Shown here piece after piece: positions 1 to 52,219 of a DNA stretch of 64,000 bases. The stretch's first letter is position 1, and every line of letters starts with the position of its first letter. The stretch comes from a virus, in IMG/VR virus record IMGVR_UViG_3300027858_000005, positions 3-64,002 of that record; one strand, given 5' to 3'. A program made the translations under genes and the position numbers. The notes beneath the pieces are model-generated. The model was not told the origin of the DNA. It saw only the letters and a program-made list of their open reading frames with translations, and made no database searches.

Positions 1-155
1 GTTCCAGTCAAAGCAAAAGTAACGCGCGCCATTCGAAACGTACCAGTCCCGGTAAACTCCTGAAGTGTTCTTCTTGTTGCCCAGTTCGTAAACGATCTTA
101 TCTTTGAACCAGTGCGGCGGCGGCATTGCCGTCAATTCGTCAACGGGTATTTCAG

Positions 156-488
156 TCATGATATCACCATCGGTTTTTCGATCTTAATGATCTTTTCATT
201 ATAGTCGACAATAATGCCGTATTTGTTGCCGGTACGCTTTACGTTTTCGGTTTCCGGGTAAGTGAAGTCGCCTTCAAGCGGTCTGCCGCCCGGTCCCATG
301 TCGTGCCATTCTTCTTTCAGAAACGAATACAAAGCTTCCATCGTCACGCCGTTCGCGTTGACGGTCATTCCATACGTGTGCGTTTCTGTAAGCGTCGCAA
401 CACGCATCAGGTTGTCAGCCTTGATGATCGCCGGGGCGCAGAACAGCGCCGCCGTGCCTTGTAAAAATCTTCGTCTGGTGATGTTCAT
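156..488 (-). CDS. Tat (twin-arginine) signal small protein carrying a segment shared with the large virion protein at 48001-50241
   Basis: N-terminus MNITRRRFLQGTAALFCAPAIIKA fits the RRxFL Tat motif plus h-region; internal VNANGVTMEALYSFLKEEW matches VDADGVTEQALYSFLKEEW in the 48001 protein. Confidence 0.75.
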   Translation of the reverse strand: MNITRRRFLQGTAALFCAPAIIKADNLMRVATLTETHTYGMTVNANGVTMEALYSFLKEEWHDMGPGGRPLEGDFTYPETENVKRTGNKYGIIVDYNEKIIKIEKPMVIS

Positions 489-919
489 TTCATTAAGTCG
501 TCTGGAAACTCTACAAAACTGGGCTGATCCGGTGAGCCGCGCAGTTCCCGCGCCAAGTCGACCCCGCGTTCAGACAGCGCACCGCCGACCGTTTCCCGTA
601 CTATATCATCGTGACTGAATTCAGCCCAGTACAATTCGAACGCGACCGTGTTTTCTGTCGCCTCGAACGAATGGTATAGCCCGGGCTTTACTTGCATGAA
701 GTCACCACGAATCAAACGGGTTTCATCGACAAGGTCGTAATCTTTTTGCCATACCTTAACGACCAGTTCACCGTTTTCAACGTAGAAGCCGTTCCACTTG
801 TAATCGTGTTTATGCTTTGAACAGTGACCGCCCGCCGTGATTGCGATGCGATGAAATTCAAGCACGCCGTTCGCATGTATCAAACTGGTTTCACCCCAGA
901 CTTTGCCCGCGATTCTCAT
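485..919 (-). CDS. Cupin-fold protein (possible sugar isomerase type)
   Basis: GKVWG start, cupin motif 1 CSKHKHDYKWNGFYVENGEL and motif 2 GDFMQVKPGLYHSF; ATGA overlaps. Confidence 0.8.
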   Translation of the reverse strand: MRIAGKVWGETSLIHANGVLEFHRIAITAGGHCSKHKHDYKWNGFYVENGELVVKVWQKDYDLVDETRLIRGDFMQVKPGLYHSFEATENTVAFELYWAEFSHDDIVRETVGGALSERGVDLARELRGSPDQPSFVEFPDDLMK

Positions 920-990
920 ATCGACAACCACAAAAAAATCAATGCCGTAACCAGTACCGCAAGCAAAAGTTGTTTGTCTAGCTCCTTCAT
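916..990 (-). CDS. 24-aa hydrophobic peptide
   Basis: MKELDKQLLLAVLVTALIFLWLSI, ATGA-coupled to both neighbours. Confidence 0.5.
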   Translation of the reverse strand: MKELDKQLLLAVLVTALIFLWLSI

Positions 991-40052: not shown

Positions 40053-41282
40053 TTACGCTGCAAATCTGTTGATCGCAACGGTGAAGTCGCTGTCAGGGTC
40101 GCGCTTACCGTTAAACTCGACCGAAACTAGAATGTCTTGATCGTTGCCGCCCGTGTCAGTGTTGCCGCTGATAAACTTCACTGCCGGGAAATCGAAAACG
40201 TAATTGTCGCCGCCGAGCGTTGCCCGGAAACTTAAACTGACGGTATCGAAGTTCAGGTACTTGTCAAAGAAGGTACGATCTAACAGATACGCTTCAATTG
40301 TGCCAGTCAGTAATGACCGACCCAGACCGATTCCGTTGTTCGCTAACGAACCAATACACGGTTGCGCCCGCAGTGTGTTGTCAACGGTGAAATCGACATT
40401 CGTAAATATGCAGTTCGTATCGGGTAAACCGTCGACCAGAATGTCAGTGATGTTGTCGACCGCGTTCATGACATCATCCGCGCTGACCGCTTGCGGTGCG
40501 CCGTCGCCAATGGTTGCACCAACACTGAAAGCTTGCTTGCCTTCGAAGGTGAAACCGCCGTTGATAATTGCACCCGGGGCGATGGTCAAGTTCATGGTGC
40601 CGACGCGCATTCCGGTGTAATACTGAATGACGCTTGATTCTGGTGAATCCTGATCGTCGGTAATGTCGCTAAACAATTTTTCAATGGTGAACGACTTTCG
40701 AGTGACGCCGTTCTTGATGAACTGCCCCTTGATATTGAACGTGCCGCCCGCTTCGTCTTGCTGCGGGGCTTGCTCGAACAGAATAGTGTTTGCTTCGGCG
40801 TCAACGCTGGCGACTTTGTAGTAACCGTCGTTCGTTGGCGACACGGCAGAACCCGAGAGTTGCAACCACTGCCCCGCAACAACATTTTCCATCCAGTTAG
40901 GCGACGCGGTAGGCGACGCCGTTAGAATGAAAGACCCGGGGCCGGGGGACGCAGTAATGAAGCCAGCGCCAACGCCGGTTTCATCAACCAGTGTTGACCA
41001 TTCATCGGCCAATGCGCCCGCCATCAAATCGTCATGCGACCCGTACGATAGTTCGATGCCGACGTCGCCGCCTGCTGATACTGCCGTTCGAATGATATCC
41101 GAAACTTGACGGTCACTTCGAATTTCTTCCGACTGTGAAGTCTCGGTTGTCTGGGTTAGTGAATCGCTTGTGAATCGAAATTCATTCAGCTTCGGGGCTT
41201 CAGGAGAACCGCCGCTGACCGGAATTTCGCCCCATGTGGATTCTTCCACATAGTATAGCTGAACTGAACTTGAATCTGACAT
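40053..41282 (-). CDS. Major tail tube protein
   Basis: FRFTSDSL, SEEIRSDRQ, FDFPAVKF; position. Confidence 0.9.
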   Translation of the reverse strand: MSDSSSVQLYYVEESTWGEIPVSGGSPEAPKLNEFRFTSDSLTQTTETSQSEEIRSDRQVSDIIRTAVSAGGDVGIELSYGSHDDLMAGALADEWSTLVDETGVGAGFITASPGPGSFILTASPTASPNWMENVVAGQWLQLSGSAVSPTNDGYYKVASVDAEANTILFEQAPQQDEAGGTFNIKGQFIKNGVTRKSFTIEKLFSDITDDQDSPESSVIQYYTGMRVGTMNLTIAPGAIINGGFTFEGKQAFSVGATIGDGAPQAVSADDVMNAVDNITDILVDGLPDTNCIFTNVDFTVDNTLRAQPCIGSLANNGIGLGRSLLTGTIEAYLLDRTFFDKYLNFDTVSLSFRATLGGDNYVFDFPAVKFISGNTDTGGNDQDILVSVEFNGKRDPDSDFTVAINRFAA

Positions 41283-43938: not shown

Positions 43939-44553
43939 TCAAGTCACCTTGCCCCGACGATCTGCGCCTTGACCGCGATACGGCTGCGTTGCAGCAACGT
44001 CTTCGAACAAGTCACCTTGAAGTAGAATTGTGGTGTCATCATCGTCATATATTTCTATTCTACCTGTTCCCGGGTCAGTATGGGTACGATTTGTCAAGAT
44101 TTTTCTGGTCGTGGTAGTGTTCTCGCCGATTAAAGTGATCCCGTCAAGCAGGTTCGTTACTTTATTTTCAACGTTCACAGTGTACGGACCATCGACCGGG
44201 ATCGAAATAGATTGCCCCGCCGGGTCGGTGAAAATGTTACCGACGATCTGCCAGCGGTGATGACCTTCGGCAGCTTTGAACCGCCAGCCGTTTGTCACAA
44301 AGTAGGTAATGCCAAGATTTTCAACGTCAGATGTCGGGTCACCGCCGACTATTCGAACCGCTGGTGGGAATCCAAGATTACCCGTTGACGGCGACCCAGC
44401 GTTGTCCGCGACAAACTGTTTCCACTCGCTATAAATTTCTTGCGCGTTGGTTATGTTATCAACAAGCGTTTCCGGGCTGGTTTCCGGGCTAGGCGGAACC
44501 CCGATTTCGATAATCAGCAAGCGTTCGGTGTCAAATGTGACGACGTTAGGCAT
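43939..44553 (-). CDS. Putative virion protein
   Basis: VTFD...EIYSEWK...VGGDPT...YFVTNGWR; related motif in the 48001 protein. Confidence 0.65.
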   Translation of the reverse strand: MPNVVTFDTERLLIIEIGVPPSPETSPETLVDNITNAQEIYSEWKQFVADNAGSPSTGNLGFPPAVRIVGGDPTSDVENLGITYFVTNGWRFKAAEGHHRWQIVGNIFTDPAGQSISIPVDGPYTVNVENKVTNLLDGITLIGENTTTTRKILTNRTHTDPGTGRIEIYDDDDTTILLQGDLFEDVAATQPYRGQGADRRGKVT

Positions 44554-46451
44554 TACGGATTCTCGAAGTTCCGGTCTAAAATTTGGGAAATCGGGAACGA
44601 CGTTGACGTCGTTGGGATAGTAAAGTTCTTAATGCGGTTGTTCGGCGGCAATATCCAATCGACATTGAACACAACAATATCAACCACCGTGCCCGCTGCG
44701 GCACTGAATGTGAATTCAGACGGCGACCCTGTGTCTTCAATGCCCGCAATTTCAGTGGTATCAATCGGGCTGGTGAAATCTTCCGCATGATAAACGCGGA
44801 CTTCTGTAAATTCTTCAATGTTCGTTAAAGTAACTGACACATTGTTATTAATAGTCGTGCCCGGGGATTGCTTATCGGTGAACGTCGGTGTGTCACCGTC
44901 GGTTATATTCAATATCACTGCACCAATACCGTTAAACAATGCAGCGTCGGTTGTATCGTTACCGTCGGGGCTAGTGCCATCTAACCATTGCCCGTCAAAC
45001 AAGTTGCTCGGAAAAGAAAACTCACCTTCTGCGAGTAAATTTATCGCGTGACCCGCACCCGCACCGGAAAATAAAAAAGAATTACCAATAAGCCCCGCCG
45101 GGTTCGCAGTCCATAGATACGCGACGTCTTCAGGACTTCCCAAAATTGGCGATTCATCAAATGTTTGTGGTGTTGCGGTGACAATTGTGTTCGCTTGAAA
45201 ATTTGCACCGACACCGCCGCCTGACCCAAAAGCAAAACCAAAGCCCAGCCATTCAGACGAAGGGGCGTTAGTGGTAAGTGTGAATTCCCAGCCGTCACTA
45301 TTGAAAGACCACCCAGAAGCAACGACAGCAGAACCAGCGCCGTCGCTATCTAATATATCAAGGTCTGTTGCTGTCATCGACTTTGCAACTGATGTCGAAA
45401 CGTTATCTTGCCCAGAAATCGAAACAACACCTAGTGCGGCTTTCCTATCGAATGCCGCTATAGATATGGTTTTGTCCCCCGTGGCGTCGGCAGCATTTCT
45501 GGAAGACACCCCGCCCGCCGTGAATATCATTCCGAAATCTGGTTCGAATCCCGGGTTCGTTTCGGTGTAATCACCAGACGTCGGCCACGCCATATCAAAA
45601 AGCGCCATTTGTGGGTTGTCAGTGAAACGAAAACATAAGTGCAAAATGTCATCACTCCCGCCGCCGCCAGTACCGTCAGTTCTTATGTCAAACCCGGTTG
45701 CTGTAAACGCTGTTAACGTGCAATCGTATTGAACGCCGCCGCCTAGCATCCCATGCGCGAGAACGTCATTGCTAATTATTGCAGTTATGTCGGTTGGGTC
45801 TTCAGCGTTGCCAGCGGAGTGACCTATTGCCCGTTGTGTCAAACTCCCGTCGTTGATTGCAACACCGAACGAAAGGTAATTATTTTCTTTCCAGTCAGTG
45901 GTTCCAACAGTCGTTAAGTTGTTAATAGCGAAAACTAAATCAGGTGTGAAGCCCGGGGTTGTTATATTAATTGTTTCCCCGTTAGTCGTTCCCATTCTAG
46001 TATGATTGCAATCGACTTCAGCGATATCTGACCCTGTAAACAAAACACAAAGAACTGACGGAAAAATTTGTGGCGAATCGTTAAAAGGTGTTGTAACGGT
46101 AAACCTTATACCGTCTTCTATAAATGAATCAAAATCCCATTGACCCACCGCTTCGGGGCTTTGTGTGTCTGCACGCACCATTATTATAGATGAATTACTA
46201 TCGGCGCGACCGTTGAAAGCTGGGTTATCGTTGTCCCGCATGTAACCAGCGTAAACTCGCTGATTCGTGCCGTCTGTAATTCCAATCGACAACAAACCGC
46301 TTGCTTCAACTACACCGTCAGTTTGACCGTTATTTGTGTAACAAATTGCCGCTTTTGGTAGCCCGATTCCGGGTATGGTGACGTCGACTGTTCCAGCCGC
46401 CCCAGTATCATCGACATTAAAAACAACAACATGTTTTTTTACATCAGCCAT
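44553..46451 (-). CDS. Large beta-rich putative virion (fibre/decoration) protein
   Basis: Three internal PG(F/I)xP-type repeats; C-terminal EVRVY...EIAGIE...DRNFENP. Confidence 0.65.
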   Translation of the reverse strand: MADVKKHVVVFNVDDTGAAGTVDVTIPGIGLPKAAICYTNNGQTDGVVEASGLLSIGITDGTNQRVYAGYMRDNDNPAFNGRADSNSSIIMVRADTQSPEAVGQWDFDSFIEDGIRFTVTTPFNDSPQIFPSVLCVLFTGSDIAEVDCNHTRMGTTNGETINITTPGFTPDLVFAINNLTTVGTTDWKENNYLSFGVAINDGSLTQRAIGHSAGNAEDPTDITAIISNDVLAHGMLGGGVQYDCTLTAFTATGFDIRTDGTGGGGSDDILHLCFRFTDNPQMALFDMAWPTSGDYTETNPGFEPDFGMIFTAGGVSSRNAADATGDKTISIAAFDRKAALGVVSISGQDNVSTSVAKSMTATDLDILDSDGAGSAVVASGWSFNSDGWEFTLTTNAPSSEWLGFGFAFGSGGGVGANFQANTIVTATPQTFDESPILGSPEDVAYLWTANPAGLIGNSFLFSGAGAGHAINLLAEGEFSFPSNLFDGQWLDGTSPDGNDTTDAALFNGIGAVILNITDGDTPTFTDKQSPGTTINNNVSVTLTNIEEFTEVRVYHAEDFTSPIDTTEIAGIEDTGSPSEFTFSAAAGTVVDIVVFNVDWILPPNNRIKNFTIPTTSTSFPISQILDRNFENP

Positions 46452-48000: not shown

Positions 48001-50241
48001 TTACGGATTGTTGAAGTTTCTTTCAAGCGGCGCAACAAGCGTGAAATCGTTGGTCGTTGACCGTTGTATTGTACCAGTAGTTTCAACAAACTGCGCAAGG
48101 TCCGTTCCGATTGCCCGAACTGCGACCGCTGCGTCAGTAGCGGGTGTTCTTCCGCCCTGATCGTTGCCGTCGTAATCGTAGTCATAAGACACACTTGAAC
48201 CCGGCACAAGCCCGGTGATCGGTTGCGGGCTATGTGTGCTGTCCGAATTAACGATGATCGAATCAGGGCTGTCAATCGGGTTTTCGTCAACGCTACCAGA
48301 AACCGGGCCTTCGTCGGTCAGTGTTAGCGTGCTGTCGTATGCCTGAACATCGATATCAGAACTTGAATTGAAAGCGATGACCAAGAAGACGCCGTTGTTG
48401 TTCGGGTCAGTGAACCCGTTCAGGTTGATGTATTCGCCCGCTACAACGGTCGGGAATTGCGCGGTACAAGTGATGTTCGCGTCACTGCCGACAATCGTTC
48501 CAATTGACAAATCGGTAATGACCGTTCGCGTGGTGTACCGATAGAACATTGAATACGTTGCGGGTCCAGTGTCGTTCTGCAAGTTTTCATTGAAGAAAAT
48601 GTTGCCCGCTGCCACGAACGGAAACGTTCTGGTAAGACCGTCGTTATCAATAAACGAAATCCTGTTGGTATCCGCCGCATTGAAGTTGATGATCGTAACA
48701 CCCGTGCCGCCGCCGCTTGGATTGGTCGCAGCGAGTGTACCAAGCGAATCACCAACGAAGGCAAGTAATTCATCTGCCGTTTTGCCGGTAACAACGTCGT
48801 TACCCGGGGACAAAATATTGTCGTTGATGTTGGCCGCTTGCCGCAATGAAAATTGGACGTATTCGTAAACGAATTCGAGTGACAGCCCTTTTGCATCGAT
48901 CACGATTCCGAACGCTGCGTCAGTTTGTGGTGACTGGGTGCTTGCGCCGTCAGCGTTAAAGCCGCTGATGACCTGCGCCGTACCAAAGTATTCAATGGTG
49001 ACTGTTGGCGACCTTGTGGAAACTGTTGCGTCTGCATTAAGAACCTTCAGGTCGGCAGAATTCGCCAACGGGAATCGATACACCTGATTCGTCAATACGG
49101 TTACACCGATATCGGCGAGGGCAGCTTGCGCATAGGTCTTGCCGGAATCCGGGTCAAGTGCCGTGGTGAAACCTTCACGCAGGAACAGGGTTAGCAGGTT
49201 TCTGTTATCGACTGCAACGTCAGCGGTGCGTTCGTTCGGCGAGGTTGTCGCGGTGAATGACGCGGCGGTTACAGTAACGACGCCAGCGGTTACCGCAAGA
49301 ACGTCGAAGGTGCCGTCGTTCACCGGGCTGGTGCCGCTGCAATTCTCGACGGTGATTTGACCGCCAACTTGAACGCCGTCAGTGATCCAGCTTCCACCGT
49401 CGTTCCGCGTGATGCTGTCGGTTCCGAAATCGAGTCCCAGACCAGCGCCGCCGCCGTTATTCACGACGCGGTTGTAAACCAAGACAGATTCGTTGACCGG
49501 GCCGTCGAAATCGAAGTCGATTGCAGCGCCCGTGTCGGTCGGGTCGTTGCCCTGCTGGTAGTACGCCCGGTCGGTTGCTTCAACAAACGGTCCCAGCGTA
49601 ATAGCGCAAATGTACTGTTTGATCAATTCGCCGTCAGTGTCCAGTTCAGACCAGCCGCCAGTTCTAATCAGTTTTCGTGTGCGGAACGTTGCCGGGGAAG
49701 CGTTGGTGTCGTCCGCCGGATTCCAGTTTTCGGAAAATTCGTACTGTTCTGGGGTGATCGCAACCATCGGGAAGACAAACGGAATCAACGTGTCGTCGTC
49801 TTTCCATTCTTCTTTCAGGAACGAATAAAGTGCCTGTTCGGTGACGCCGTCGGCGTCAACACGCCCCTGTTCCAGCAGGTATATGTCACGATCACCCGTG
49901 GCGATGTGAACTGACTTCTGGTTGTCTGATTCTGGCGAACTGGCAGAATTGCCAAGCCACGTTATTGATTCAGACCCGGCGGTGACCGGGTTGTTGCCTG
50001 AAATCTTCTTCGCGGTGACTGAACTTGTCGTTGGTGACCCGCCGACTTCTTGGTATAAGCCGTTGTTGCGTCCGTCACTGTGGTCGCGGATTTCGAAGAA
50101 TTCCCCGGCTATGATTACCGGAAGTGTTGCCGCTGAAGTGATGACTGCTTCGTCAAGTGGTGAACCAACGGTGAAGGTAACTGCGGCGGGGGCTGTAATC
50201 GCGCCTTGCGAAAGATCGTCTGGATCAGTGCGAAGTGTCAT
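48001..50241 (-). CDS. Large putative virion protein (746 aa)
   Basis: GVTEQALYSFLKEEW, IRTGGWSE, C-terminal ERNFNNP; 11 SP motifs; ATG at 50241. Confidence 0.7.
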   Translation of the reverse strand: MTLRTDPDDLSQGAITAPAAVTFTVGSPLDEAVITSAATLPVIIAGEFFEIRDHSDGRNNGLYQEVGGSPTTSSVTAKKISGNNPVTAGSESITWLGNSASSPESDNQKSVHIATGDRDIYLLEQGRVDADGVTEQALYSFLKEEWKDDDTLIPFVFPMVAITPEQYEFSENWNPADDTNASPATFRTRKLIRTGGWSELDTDGELIKQYICAITLGPFVEATDRAYYQQGNDPTDTGAAIDFDFDGPVNESVLVYNRVVNNGGGAGLGLDFGTDSITRNDGGSWITDGVQVGGQITVENCSGTSPVNDGTFDVLAVTAGVVTVTAASFTATTSPNERTADVAVDNRNLLTLFLREGFTTALDPDSGKTYAQAALADIGVTVLTNQVYRFPLANSADLKVLNADATVSTRSPTVTIEYFGTAQVISGFNADGASTQSPQTDAAFGIVIDAKGLSLEFVYEYVQFSLRQAANINDNILSPGNDVVTGKTADELLAFVGDSLGTLAATNPSGGGTGVTIINFNAADTNRISFIDNDGLTRTFPFVAAGNIFFNENLQNDTGPATYSMFYRYTTRTVITDLSIGTIVGSDANITCTAQFPTVVAGEYINLNGFTDPNNNGVFLVIAFNSSSDIDVQAYDSTLTLTDEGPVSGSVDENPIDSPDSIIVNSDSTHSPQPITGLVPGSSVSYDYDYDGNDQGGRTPATDAAVAVRAIGTDLAQFVETTGTIQRSTTNDFTLVAPLERNFNNP

Positions 50242-50651
50242 GGGTCTGAATCTCCAAAGCTGCAAAATTCGCGCAATACGCGCGGGGAATGAATTTTAAC
50301 CCCTTCAAGGCTTCCCGCAGCAAGGGTTCAGTTCCGACAATTGTAGCTGATTGCAGGAACTTTGTGCAACCCATAGGAACCGAATCGAACAAAAACAAAC
50401 AACCGACATTTTCCATCGGTTCTTCGTTGTCGAGATAGAATAGCGCGTTTCGCGGTGCTTGTGGTAGCGAAAACGTAGGAATTCCAGTGAAAATCTTAGA
50501 TTCAACCCGGCTTTTCCGGGTATCGTAACAGTGAACAGGTCGCCCCAGACTAGCGATAACCCCTATCGGTTTCGTGTGATTCAGTATTCCTGCAACGACC
50601 GTGTTTCCGAACTTGTAGTTCGAGCCCCGACAAACTTCGTATATCAGGCTG
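50225..50651 (-). other. Start-less open frame or structured spacer
   Basis: About 140 stop-free codons in the +1 frame of the upstream gene; also several hairpins. Confidence 0.35.
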
Positions 50652-51184: not shown

Positions 51185-52219
51185 TTAGAGTTGTGAACGG
51201 ATGACCACACCCGGCAAGTCTTTGTTGTCGTCCATCACTGAATCCCAGTTGGAACTGGTGCCCAGTGCGGCTTCGTCGGGGTTAACCCCGCCGTTTGCGA
51301 CATCCCACTTGATACCTTTCAGACCCATGTTGTAGGCAAATTCACCTTGCAAACGGGTTACCAGATTTTCTTGCCCGGTAATGACTTCGGTATGAAGCAT
51401 GTCTTCTTCGCTGTCTTCGGCGACACAACTATTTTCAACCAGACCCAAAGTCGCGTACTGGGTAGGTGAAACACTGTCGTCGATCAGTGCAGCCGAATCG
51501 GTAATCAGAACCGGACGGTTCAGGGTGACCGGCGTCGCTGTGGCAACGTTGAAGTTTGAAACACCGTCAATGTTATCGGTGATCTGTGAAGATACCAACT
51601 CGTAATACGGCTTCGAGTGCATGACCCAGATTTTGACCCGGCTGGCGGCGTCGCCAAACAGTGCCAGACCGTTGACAAGGTCGAGCGTGTCAAGACCGGC
51701 TTGCGGACTTGCACCGCCAGCGTCGCCGTCATACACAAGACCAGCTTGTGCAGTGATCCCGGCAACTAACGATGTAACGCAGGCGTCAAGCATTTCGACT
51801 TGCATTGCTTTCGCGATTTGCTCACCGAGCAAGAACGAAAGAACTTCAAGATCAGCCGAAGCGCCCAGCTTGCGGAATGAATCGAGAGTTTGATCGATAG
51901 GCCCGATACGACGATTCAGCTTCACGCTGATGAATTCTTCGATAGGGACGGCGCTTGATGCTACTGCCGGATTTGCGGGGGACACGTTAACTTCCCGGCG
52001 CTGGATGATATTTGCAACGTTCTTGAAGAACGATTCTTGTGCGAAGTCACCTTTCTGACGATTGGTAACCATGCGGATTGCATTCAGCGATTGCGCGTTA
52101 AACGCATTCGATACCTGAACGAGAGTTTCAGACATGCCCGAATGGACAAGTTCTGGGTAGATAATTCCTTCTGGTAATCTACCAACACCAGCGAACGATT
52201 CGCGAGTACCTTCTGTCAT
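51185..52219 (-). CDS. Major capsid protein
   Basis: 344 aa after the scaffold; FNAQSLNAI, VMHSKPY, GIKWD..NGG.NP. Confidence 0.92.
   Translation of the reverse strand: MTEGTRESFAGVGRLPEGIIYPELVHSGMSETLVQVSNAFNAQSLNAIRMVTNRQKGDFAQESFFKNVANIIQRREVNVSPANPAVASSAVPIEEFISVKLNRRIGPIDQTLDSFRKLGASADLEVLSFLLGEQIAKAMQVEMLDACVTSLVAGITAQAGLVYDGDAGGASPQAGLDTLDLVNGLALFGDAASRVKIWVMHSKPYYELVSSQITDNIDGVSNFNVATATPVTLNRPVLITDSAALIDDSVSPTQYATLGLVENSCVAEDSEEDMLHTEVITGQENLVTRLQGEFAYNMGLKGIKWDVANGGVNPDEAALGTSSNWDSVMDDNKDLPGVVIRSQL

Follow-up and report, generated by a model that had tools for sequence, protein, structure and literature searches.

The window analysed here, a 64,000-nt stretch of an uncultured marine phage (positions 3 to 64,002 of IMG/VR record IMGVR_UViG_3300027858_000005), is nearly a whole virus record of 64,011 bp that is estimated to be 88% complete, and a 69,625-bp assembly of the same phage comes from a marine metagenome. 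All genes lie on the - strand, in the order terminase, portal, scaffold, major capsid protein, a 154-aa gene, a 746-aa gene, further large unknowns, connectors, tail tube, tape measure and tail tip, followed by helicase, primase, DNA polymerase, glycosyltransferases and small accessory genes that end with a cupin gene and the small gene considered here. The phage is therefore a siphovirus. The features that bear on this gene are the following.

156..488 (-), gene of a 110-aa mini-protein with a twin-arginine (Tat)-type leader (P0001), whose ATG overlaps the stop of the upstream cupin gene (ATGA) and whose stop overlaps the start of the next gene (ATGA)
417..488 (-), twin-arginine-type leader, residues 1-24 (MNITRRRFLQGTAALFCAPAIIKA), with a signal-peptidase site predicted from the sequence only after I-K-A
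390..416 (-), conserved stretch just after the predicted cleavage site, residues 25-33 (DNLMRVATL; family consensus [ED]N[IL]M[KR][IV]WVPP)
300..362 (-), residues 43-63, VNANGVTMEALYSFLKEEWHD, the copy of the signature loop and helix of the 746-aa protein
485..931 (-), cupin-domain gene, translationally coupled upstream of the mini-protein gene
44553..46451 (-), 632-aa protein whose C-terminal ~100 residues match the Syn5 gp54 "structural protein"
48001..50241 (-), 746-aa head-module protein (P0006), homologue of the Syn5 gp53 "structural protein" and member of the donor family of the copied helix
48844..48912 (-), second, diverged copy of the same strand-turn-helix element inside the 746-aa protein (FGIVIDAKGLSLEFVYEYVQFSL, residues 444-466), with a helix predicted at 455-466
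49798..49860 (-), donor segment VDADGVTEQALYSFLKEEWKD, residues 128-148 of the 746-aa form, with a helix predicted at 135-148
51185..52219 (-), major capsid protein gene (phrog_247, E 3.9e-44); the donor gene lies two genes downstream

The ORF at 156..488 encodes MNITRRRFLQG...VNANGVTMEALYSFLKEEW..., a protein that begins with MNITRRRFLQGTAALFCAPAIIKADNLM and carries VNANGVTMEALYSFLKEEW at residues 43-61. The large - strand ORF at 48001..50265, which reads 754 aa from a TTG and 746 aa from the ATG at 50241 (the form stored in the databases), contains VDADGVTEQALYSFLKEEW. BLASTP aligns residues 43-63 of the mini-protein with residues 136-156 of the 754-aa reading (128-148 of the 746-aa form), with 16/21 identical and 19/21 similar residues (E 3e-8 for the pair), and a six-frame search of the whole virus record finds this as the only second match of the mini-protein. 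The 15-mer CCATTCTTCTTTCAG occurs exactly twice, at 306-320 and 49804-49818, with 0 matches in 100 shuffles. Over the 63 nt, 46 are identical and 7 of the 16 conserved residues use different synonymous codons, so that the likeness is held at the protein level. The observation behind the original prediction, namely a Tat-type leader followed by a segment shared with a virion protein ~49.5 kb away, with synonymous differences in the DNA, thus proved right in every detail.

Several lines of evidence show that the small ORF is a real gene. It is coupled to both neighbors by ATGA overlaps and is called in the second assembly of the same phage. Its only full-length homologue, P0003 (135 aa, 57% identical, from another metagenome), keeps the leader and the motif as VDANGVSMEELYNFLKREW, and the likeness of P0003 to the big protein extends over 63 residues, for example DELMPL against DTLIPF. 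The Nei-Gojobori dN/dS between the two genes is 0.215 over 110 codons, with dS of about 1 (0.13 in the leader, 0.24 in the motif region and 0.23 in the rest), indicating purifying selection. Searches of 50,697 phage records with the DNA of the locus and with the protein found no cultured relatives, and the mini-protein has no Pfam, PHROG or NCBIfam hit beyond the leader.

The 746-aa protein has more than 840 homologues of 650-900 aa in phage contigs of 40-210 kb. In an alignment of 120 of these, the most conserved 15-residue windows of the first 300 residues start at 131-136, within the block DGVTxQALYSFxKEEWKxDxxLIPxPFPMxAITPEQFEF, and G132, Y139, S140, K143, W146 and K147 are invariant in 85 sequences. 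AlphaFold models of the whole protein (pLDDT 87.6) and of residues 1-275 (pLDDT 87.3) are confident, and both place a helix at 135-148. On a helical wheel, on which this argument rests, the invariant Q136, Y139, S140, K143, W146 and K147 fall on one face (220-340 degrees), whereas L138, F141 and L142 fall on the opposite, hydrophobic face, suggesting a functional surface rather than mere core packing; this is an inference. The mini-protein keeps Y, S, K and W of that face. Foldseek and VIA-align comparisons of the donor matched only generic small beta-barrels (residues 13-110 and 570-655; phi92 endosialidase barrel, Z 7.1-8.3; E1 FCCH) and an Ig/CnaB-like part, and the region 111-275, which holds the helix, returned no match in what was a very limited comparison.

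The decisive annotation of the donor came from cultured phages. The 746-aa protein aligns with gp53 of Synechococcus phage Syn5, annotated "structural protein", at E 2e-45, and the alignment includes the N-terminus (MxLxxDPDDL), the motif DGVTxxxLYSFxKExWK (in gp53, DGVTLKCLYSFTKEQWKEE), the second strand-helix element and the C-terminal LERN[FY]xNP (LERNYSNP in gp53). The 632-aa protein shares its C-terminal ~100 residues with Syn5 gp54, the next structural protein (E 2e-10), and ends in the same ...DRNFENP motif as the 746-aa protein (...ERNFNNP). The proteins gp53 and gp54 are reported to build the Syn5 "horn" at the vertex opposite the tail (Raytcheva et al., 2014, J Virol). The horn itself is documented (PMC4102127; PMC4238041). 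The protein of the window is 300 residues longer than gp53, through inserted beta-barrel domains, and belongs to a siphovirus with a tape measure, and its place in this virion is inferred. The synteny of the major capsid protein, the 154-aa gene and this gene is kept in relatives. The term "virion protein" in the original prediction is accordingly well founded, whereas nothing shows that the helix is a "surface element" of the virion.

Profile-profile comparison of the mini-protein family with the big family gives a probability of 92.8% and E 3.8e-7, but over 21 columns only, so that the shared element is a short segment and not a domain. The mini-protein does not align with the other conserved parts of the gp53-like core (the N-terminus, AITPEQFEF and the C-terminal LERNFxNP); it carries a copy of one element and is not a member of that family. 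The recurrence of the motif-plus-leader fusion had been set beforehand as a test, and a profile of the motif block hits P0001 (37 bits, E 5e-12) and P0003 (16 bits, E 2e-5) but none of 77 other leader proteins. Two proteins, P0126 and P0132, looked motif-like by eye. The C-terminal part of P0132 is homologous to the passenger of P0001 (E 6e-6) and best matches the second strand-helix element of its own big protein (E 6e-5), and P0132 carries three short pieces like its own big protein; nevertheless, neither P0126 nor P0132 matches the motif profile, and the exact fusion is confined to the P0001/P0003 lineage.

It could be argued that the likeness has no function and reflects chance, a recent short gene conversion or a decaying remnant of a partial duplication, given that only 21 residues are shared and that the second half of the tract shares 8 of 9 codons. 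However, the copy is 46/63 identical both to its own big gene and to the big genes of related phages, against 48-50/63 among the big genes themselves, which rules out a recent conversion and indicates an old copy kept by selection. Together with the E values of the two comparisons, the retention of the motif in P0003 at dS of about 1, and the recurrence of the same design with other donors in 8 other genomes (see below), this leaves the no-function reading as the least likely of those we considered.

The leader of the mini-protein is Tat-like. It contains the motif T4-R5-R6-R7-F8-L9-Q10, a 15-residue h-region (FLQGTAALFCAPAII, mean Kyte-Doolittle hydropathy 1.71) and K23-A24|D25 with I22 at position -3; among 29 leaders, R6 and F8 are invariant and R5 is nearly invariant. 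The protein itself scores just under both curated cut-offs (PF10518, 15.1 against 22.7 bits; TIGR01409, 15.4 against 16.7), but 63 of 125 family members hit TAT_signal at E <= 0.01 (best E 7.6e-7). The nearest named clusters in a protein language-model atlas are an [Fe] hydrogenase small subunit, TAT_signal proteins and a Rieske Tat domain, i.e., Tat substrates. The atlas model of the mini-protein is unreliable (pLDDT 0.43), so that there is no usable model of the passenger. In contrast to the Tat signals of bacterial periplasmic proteins, such as hydrogenase small subunits and Rieske proteins, with which it shares the S/T-R-R-x-F-L motif, a moderately hydrophobic h-region, a basic residue in the c-region and an A-x-A-type site, this leader is phage-encoded and almost invariant across hundreds of otherwise unrelated small proteins, its conservation runs 8-10 residues past the predicted cleavage site, and its passengers are pieces of head proteins and not cofactor enzymes.

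An exhaustive phmmer search of 1.84 billion representatives with P0001 found 27 proteins at E <= 1e-3 (26 besides the query), nearly all of 74-237 aa and sharing only residues 1-30/45, with a few aligned further, up to residue 92. A profile of the 29 leaders found at least 868 clusters of 80 aa or more and 75 loci in IMG/VR; in species genomes, the leader occurs almost only in Alphaproteobacteria (12 of 13 loci; Bradyrhizobium, Xanthobacteraceae, Roseiarcus and others). The consensus is xRRxFLxGxAALFxAPAIV[KR]A[ED]N[IL]M[KR][IV]WVPP, with R6, P19, A20 and M28 invariant in 125 sequences, and is followed by a hypervariable passenger of 50-200 residues. Literature searches, which covered open-access papers only, gave no description of this design or of phage tatA, and a 2026 review of Tat transport mentions phages only in passing.

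The strongest support for genuine Tat transport is genomic and comes from two unrelated phages. In the 71,123-bp close relative that carries a big protein 86% identical to that of the window (P0009), the leader protein P0132 is followed directly by a tatA gene (PF02416, 37.2 bits), and in the unrelated complete phage G008 (60,870 bp, 63% G+C) a tatA (23.5 bits, cut-off 21) directly precedes a second leader gene. Such linkage is rare, however. No tatA was found in the window or in the 5.5 kb that the longer assembly adds, within 4 kb of the leader in the 75 IMG/VR loci, or in 43 of 44 whole leader-bearing viral records; a pattern scan for phage tatA only re-found G008, and no genuine phage tatA turned up among 50,697 phage records.

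All confident Pfam and PHROG hits of the passengers are virion proteins, namely SU10, GP7 and PhiKZ capsid families, tail collar or fibre, fn3 and a lectin fold. We then compared each passenger in 17 near-complete leader-bearing genomes and in the present one with all ORFs of its own genome. Nine of 21 leader proteins, this one included, match a larger ORF, eight of them at E < 1e-4. The targets are seven major head proteins of three families, mostly over residues ~2-95 (for example, 56% over 48 aa, E 2e-17, in G008; 42% over 81 aa, E 1e-20, in G027; 67% over 33 aa in G049; the latter two being further genomes of the set), one P22-type portal (residues 605-632) and the gp53-like protein described here, which is an unusual donor and gave the shortest copy seen in this analysis. 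By comparison, 10 of 5349 other small ORFs in the same genomes had such a match, and at least two of these ten lie next to a leader gene, one of which copies another part of the capsid protein. The remaining 12 of 21 passengers had no traceable donor, and intragenomic searches likewise found none for the loci L090 and L062. The leader genes lie in accessory regions and not inside split structural genes: that of P0001 lies between the cupin gene and small unknown genes, about 49.5 kb from the donor by window coordinates, and the same holds for two other leader proteins, P0155 and P0217.

Taken together, these findings indicate that P0001 is a real, selected accessory gene that belongs to a large family, described in no paper that we found, in which a nearly invariant twin-arginine leader and the stretch that follows it precede a passenger that, where it can be traced, is a diverged copy of a short segment of one of the phage's own head proteins. 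The gene, the copy, the selection acting on it, the family with its copy rule and the linkage to tatA in two other phages are established by the sequence analysis, whereas everything beyond is inferred: that the protein is made from an accessory operon (a promoter-like site lies at 3915-3888), that the host Tat machinery exports it to the cell envelope, that the leader is cut after I-K-A, and that the roughly 85-residue passenger then presents the conserved polar-aromatic face of the helix (Y54, S55, K58, W61) as a competitive mimic of the interface that this helix would form in the virion protein. We consider this reading about as likely as not. For every member of the family, export, cleavage and location are inferred, and the stretch after the predicted cleavage site is conserved more strongly than a mere signal peptide requires, such that the N-terminal module may do more than target, or something else. 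The end use is more tentative still. Of the options considered, we slightly favor interference with an incoming particle of the same or a kin phage, i.e., superinfection exclusion by trapping a partner that normally docks on that head-protein element, but this last step is speculation. By analogy, the envelope superinfection-exclusion proteins T5 Llp, T4 Imm and Sp, lambdoid Cor and P22 SieA are also small phage-encoded proteins sent to the envelope of the infected cell; however, P0001 has no sequence or profile match to a described family of this kind, and those proteins use Sec-type or lipoprotein signals or membrane helices, and none is known to be a copy of the phage's own virion protein.

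Most donors in the family (the capsid N-arm and the portal) act in the cytoplasm during assembly, and it is not obvious what a periplasmic copy would meet. An alternative, unlikely but close behind the preferred end use, is that the twin-arginine module only takes the protein to the inner membrane or the TatBC receptor, with the passenger remaining on the cytoplasmic side, where, as a copy of an assembly interface, it might bind the partner of the head protein (for example, scaffolding protein, capsid protein or the docking site of the gp53-like appendage) and regulate the phage's own head assembly or poison that of a co-infecting kin phage. The N-arm of P22-type coat proteins is the scaffolding-binding site, the conservation beyond the cleavage site fits an uncleaved anchor, and most leader-bearing phages have no tatA. 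Nevertheless, an h-region of about 15 residues is short for a stable membrane anchor, and tatA, which is needed for passage and not for targeting, sits beside leader genes in two phages. Tail assembly blocker (Tab) type prophage proteins, which interfere with assembly of competing phages, offer a resemblance of idea only: they too are small accessory proteins, and P0001 is plausibly aimed at a structural protein of a phage, but Tab acts in the cytoplasm and has no export leader.

The original prediction, an envelope-localized mimic of a virion surface element acting as a receptor decoy, superinfection-exclusion factor or immune-sensor decoy, is supported only in part, namely for the Tat-like leader and the copy of a virion-protein segment, while the decoy and exclusion roles remain conjecture. 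An immune-sensor decoy, in which the fragment would occupy a host defense sensor without triggering it and might, as Tat can carry bound partners, even remove it from the cytoplasm, appears doubtful. The copied segments are the most constrained parts of capsid, portal and gp53-like proteins, major capsid and portal proteins are triggers of bacterial defense sensors (CapRel, Lit/Gol, Avs4), and the genes lie in accessory regions near early-type promoters; however, this reading has no defense partner, co-occurrence data or precedent for export of a sensor behind it, and an exported decoy leaves the compartment where these sensors act. A receptor decoy in the narrow sense is less likely again. 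The donor is a multi-domain, beta-barrel-rich appendage protein of the kind found in fibres and decorations, and its Syn5 homologue is a structural protein, but the motif lies in the conserved N-terminal core shared by phages of very different hosts, including a cyanophage and a Maribacter phage, and not in the variable C-terminal part, where receptor binding is expected. Furthermore, Tat delivers only to the periplasm, and the segments copied by sister family members, mostly capsid N-arms and a portal segment, are assembly or interior elements rather than receptor-binding surfaces, which argues against a receptor decoy as the general function.

A broader and rather doubtful possibility, which the data nevertheless allow, is that the leader family is a general phage device that sends "self-epitopes" out of the cytoplasm, i.e., short copies of the most constrained interface elements of the phage's own head proteins (capsid N-arm, portal segment, gp53-like helix). 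In the periplasm, such copies might catch the ejection or pilot proteins that normally dock on those elements inside the head as a kin phage injects them, giving kin-specific superinfection exclusion; alternatively, the fragment might bind a cytoplasmic host sensor of head proteins and carry it out by Tat hitch-hiking. In this view, some phages would bring their own TatA to raise export capacity.

If the design works as read, phages of (mainly) Alphaproteobacteria and of marine bacteria routinely export miniature copies of their own head-protein interfaces, and a few even bring a TatA subunit of the export machine. Tat signals and envelope exclusion proteins are known, but no described exclusion, decoy or assembly-control system works this way, and a conserved export leader joined to copies of the phage's own head-protein interfaces, sometimes with a phage tatA, was in no open-access paper or family library searched. 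The large size of the family and the small size of its members make it easy to test. The rule that the passenger copies the phage's own head protein is also a practical annotation tool, in that it would mark which segments of capsid, portal and appendage proteins are the functionally critical interfaces; here, it flags the unannotated 746-aa protein as a head component, with the predicted helix 135-148 as its putative key contact.

Two unrelated phages, the relative L018 (ENA ERZ23499439 scaffold_2) and L117 (IMGVR_UViG_3300045119_000559), encode a TatA/E-type translocase subunit (PF02416; L018:8761-8964 and L117:1269-1484; 37.2 and 23.5 bits, respectively) directly beside a gene with the conserved twin-arginine leader. 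No genuine phage tatA was found in 50,697 phage records. In the relative, a DUF1353 gene (L018:7585-8004) lies directly upstream of the leader-tatA pair. In the phage analyzed here, the same gene (L021:13810-14217, in the longer assembly of this phage) is followed directly by a methyltransferase gene, so that the leader-tatA block looks like an insertion in the relative.

Four regions of the window are relevant to what follows:
1-159 (- strand), the ORF cut by the window start
390-416 (- strand), the stretch that follows the predicted cleavage site of the mini-protein
44553-46451 (- strand), the 632-aa protein
48001-50241 (- strand), the 746-aa protein

The 8-10 residues after the predicted cleavage site ([ED]N[IL]M[KR][IV]WVPP) are as conserved as the leader itself in both alignments of the leader family (A3 and A6). 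This stretch might resemble a TonB box (DTMVVWP in colicin B), although this is only a tentative lead that rests on sequence resemblance alone. The truncated ORF at the window start is coupled to the mini-protein gene and, in the longer assembly, corresponds to a 204-aa gene of unknown family (L021:10330-10944).

Several phages carry two leader genes in tandem, with unrelated passengers (L045:3552-4285, L052:3623-4199, and 40314-40987 of genome G033). A different arrangement is seen in G027, the IMG/VR record behind locus L053 (30205-31337), where the leader gene copies capsid residues 12-84 and the ORF directly after it matches residues 234-332 of the same capsid protein (E 6e-8), so that it looks like a second piece of one old capsid-gene duplicate. 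In G046, the record behind locus L088 (50257-51144 and 8774-9763), two small ORFs at the contig end are 67-80% identical to parts of a 329-aa ORF 40 kb away, which is either a partial gene duplicate or an assembly artefact.

The model of the 746-aa protein has two matched small beta-barrels (residues 13-110 and 570-655), of the kind found in the phi92 endosialidase barrel and the E1 FCCH domain, and, by sequence, a third repeat at about residues 280-345. Syn5 gp53 lacks these insertions. The 632-aa and 746-aa proteins are homologues of Syn5 gp54 and gp53, respectively, and end in the same motif (..DRNFENP and ..ERNFNNP). Thus, a siphovirus carries the pair that builds the "horn" of a podovirus.
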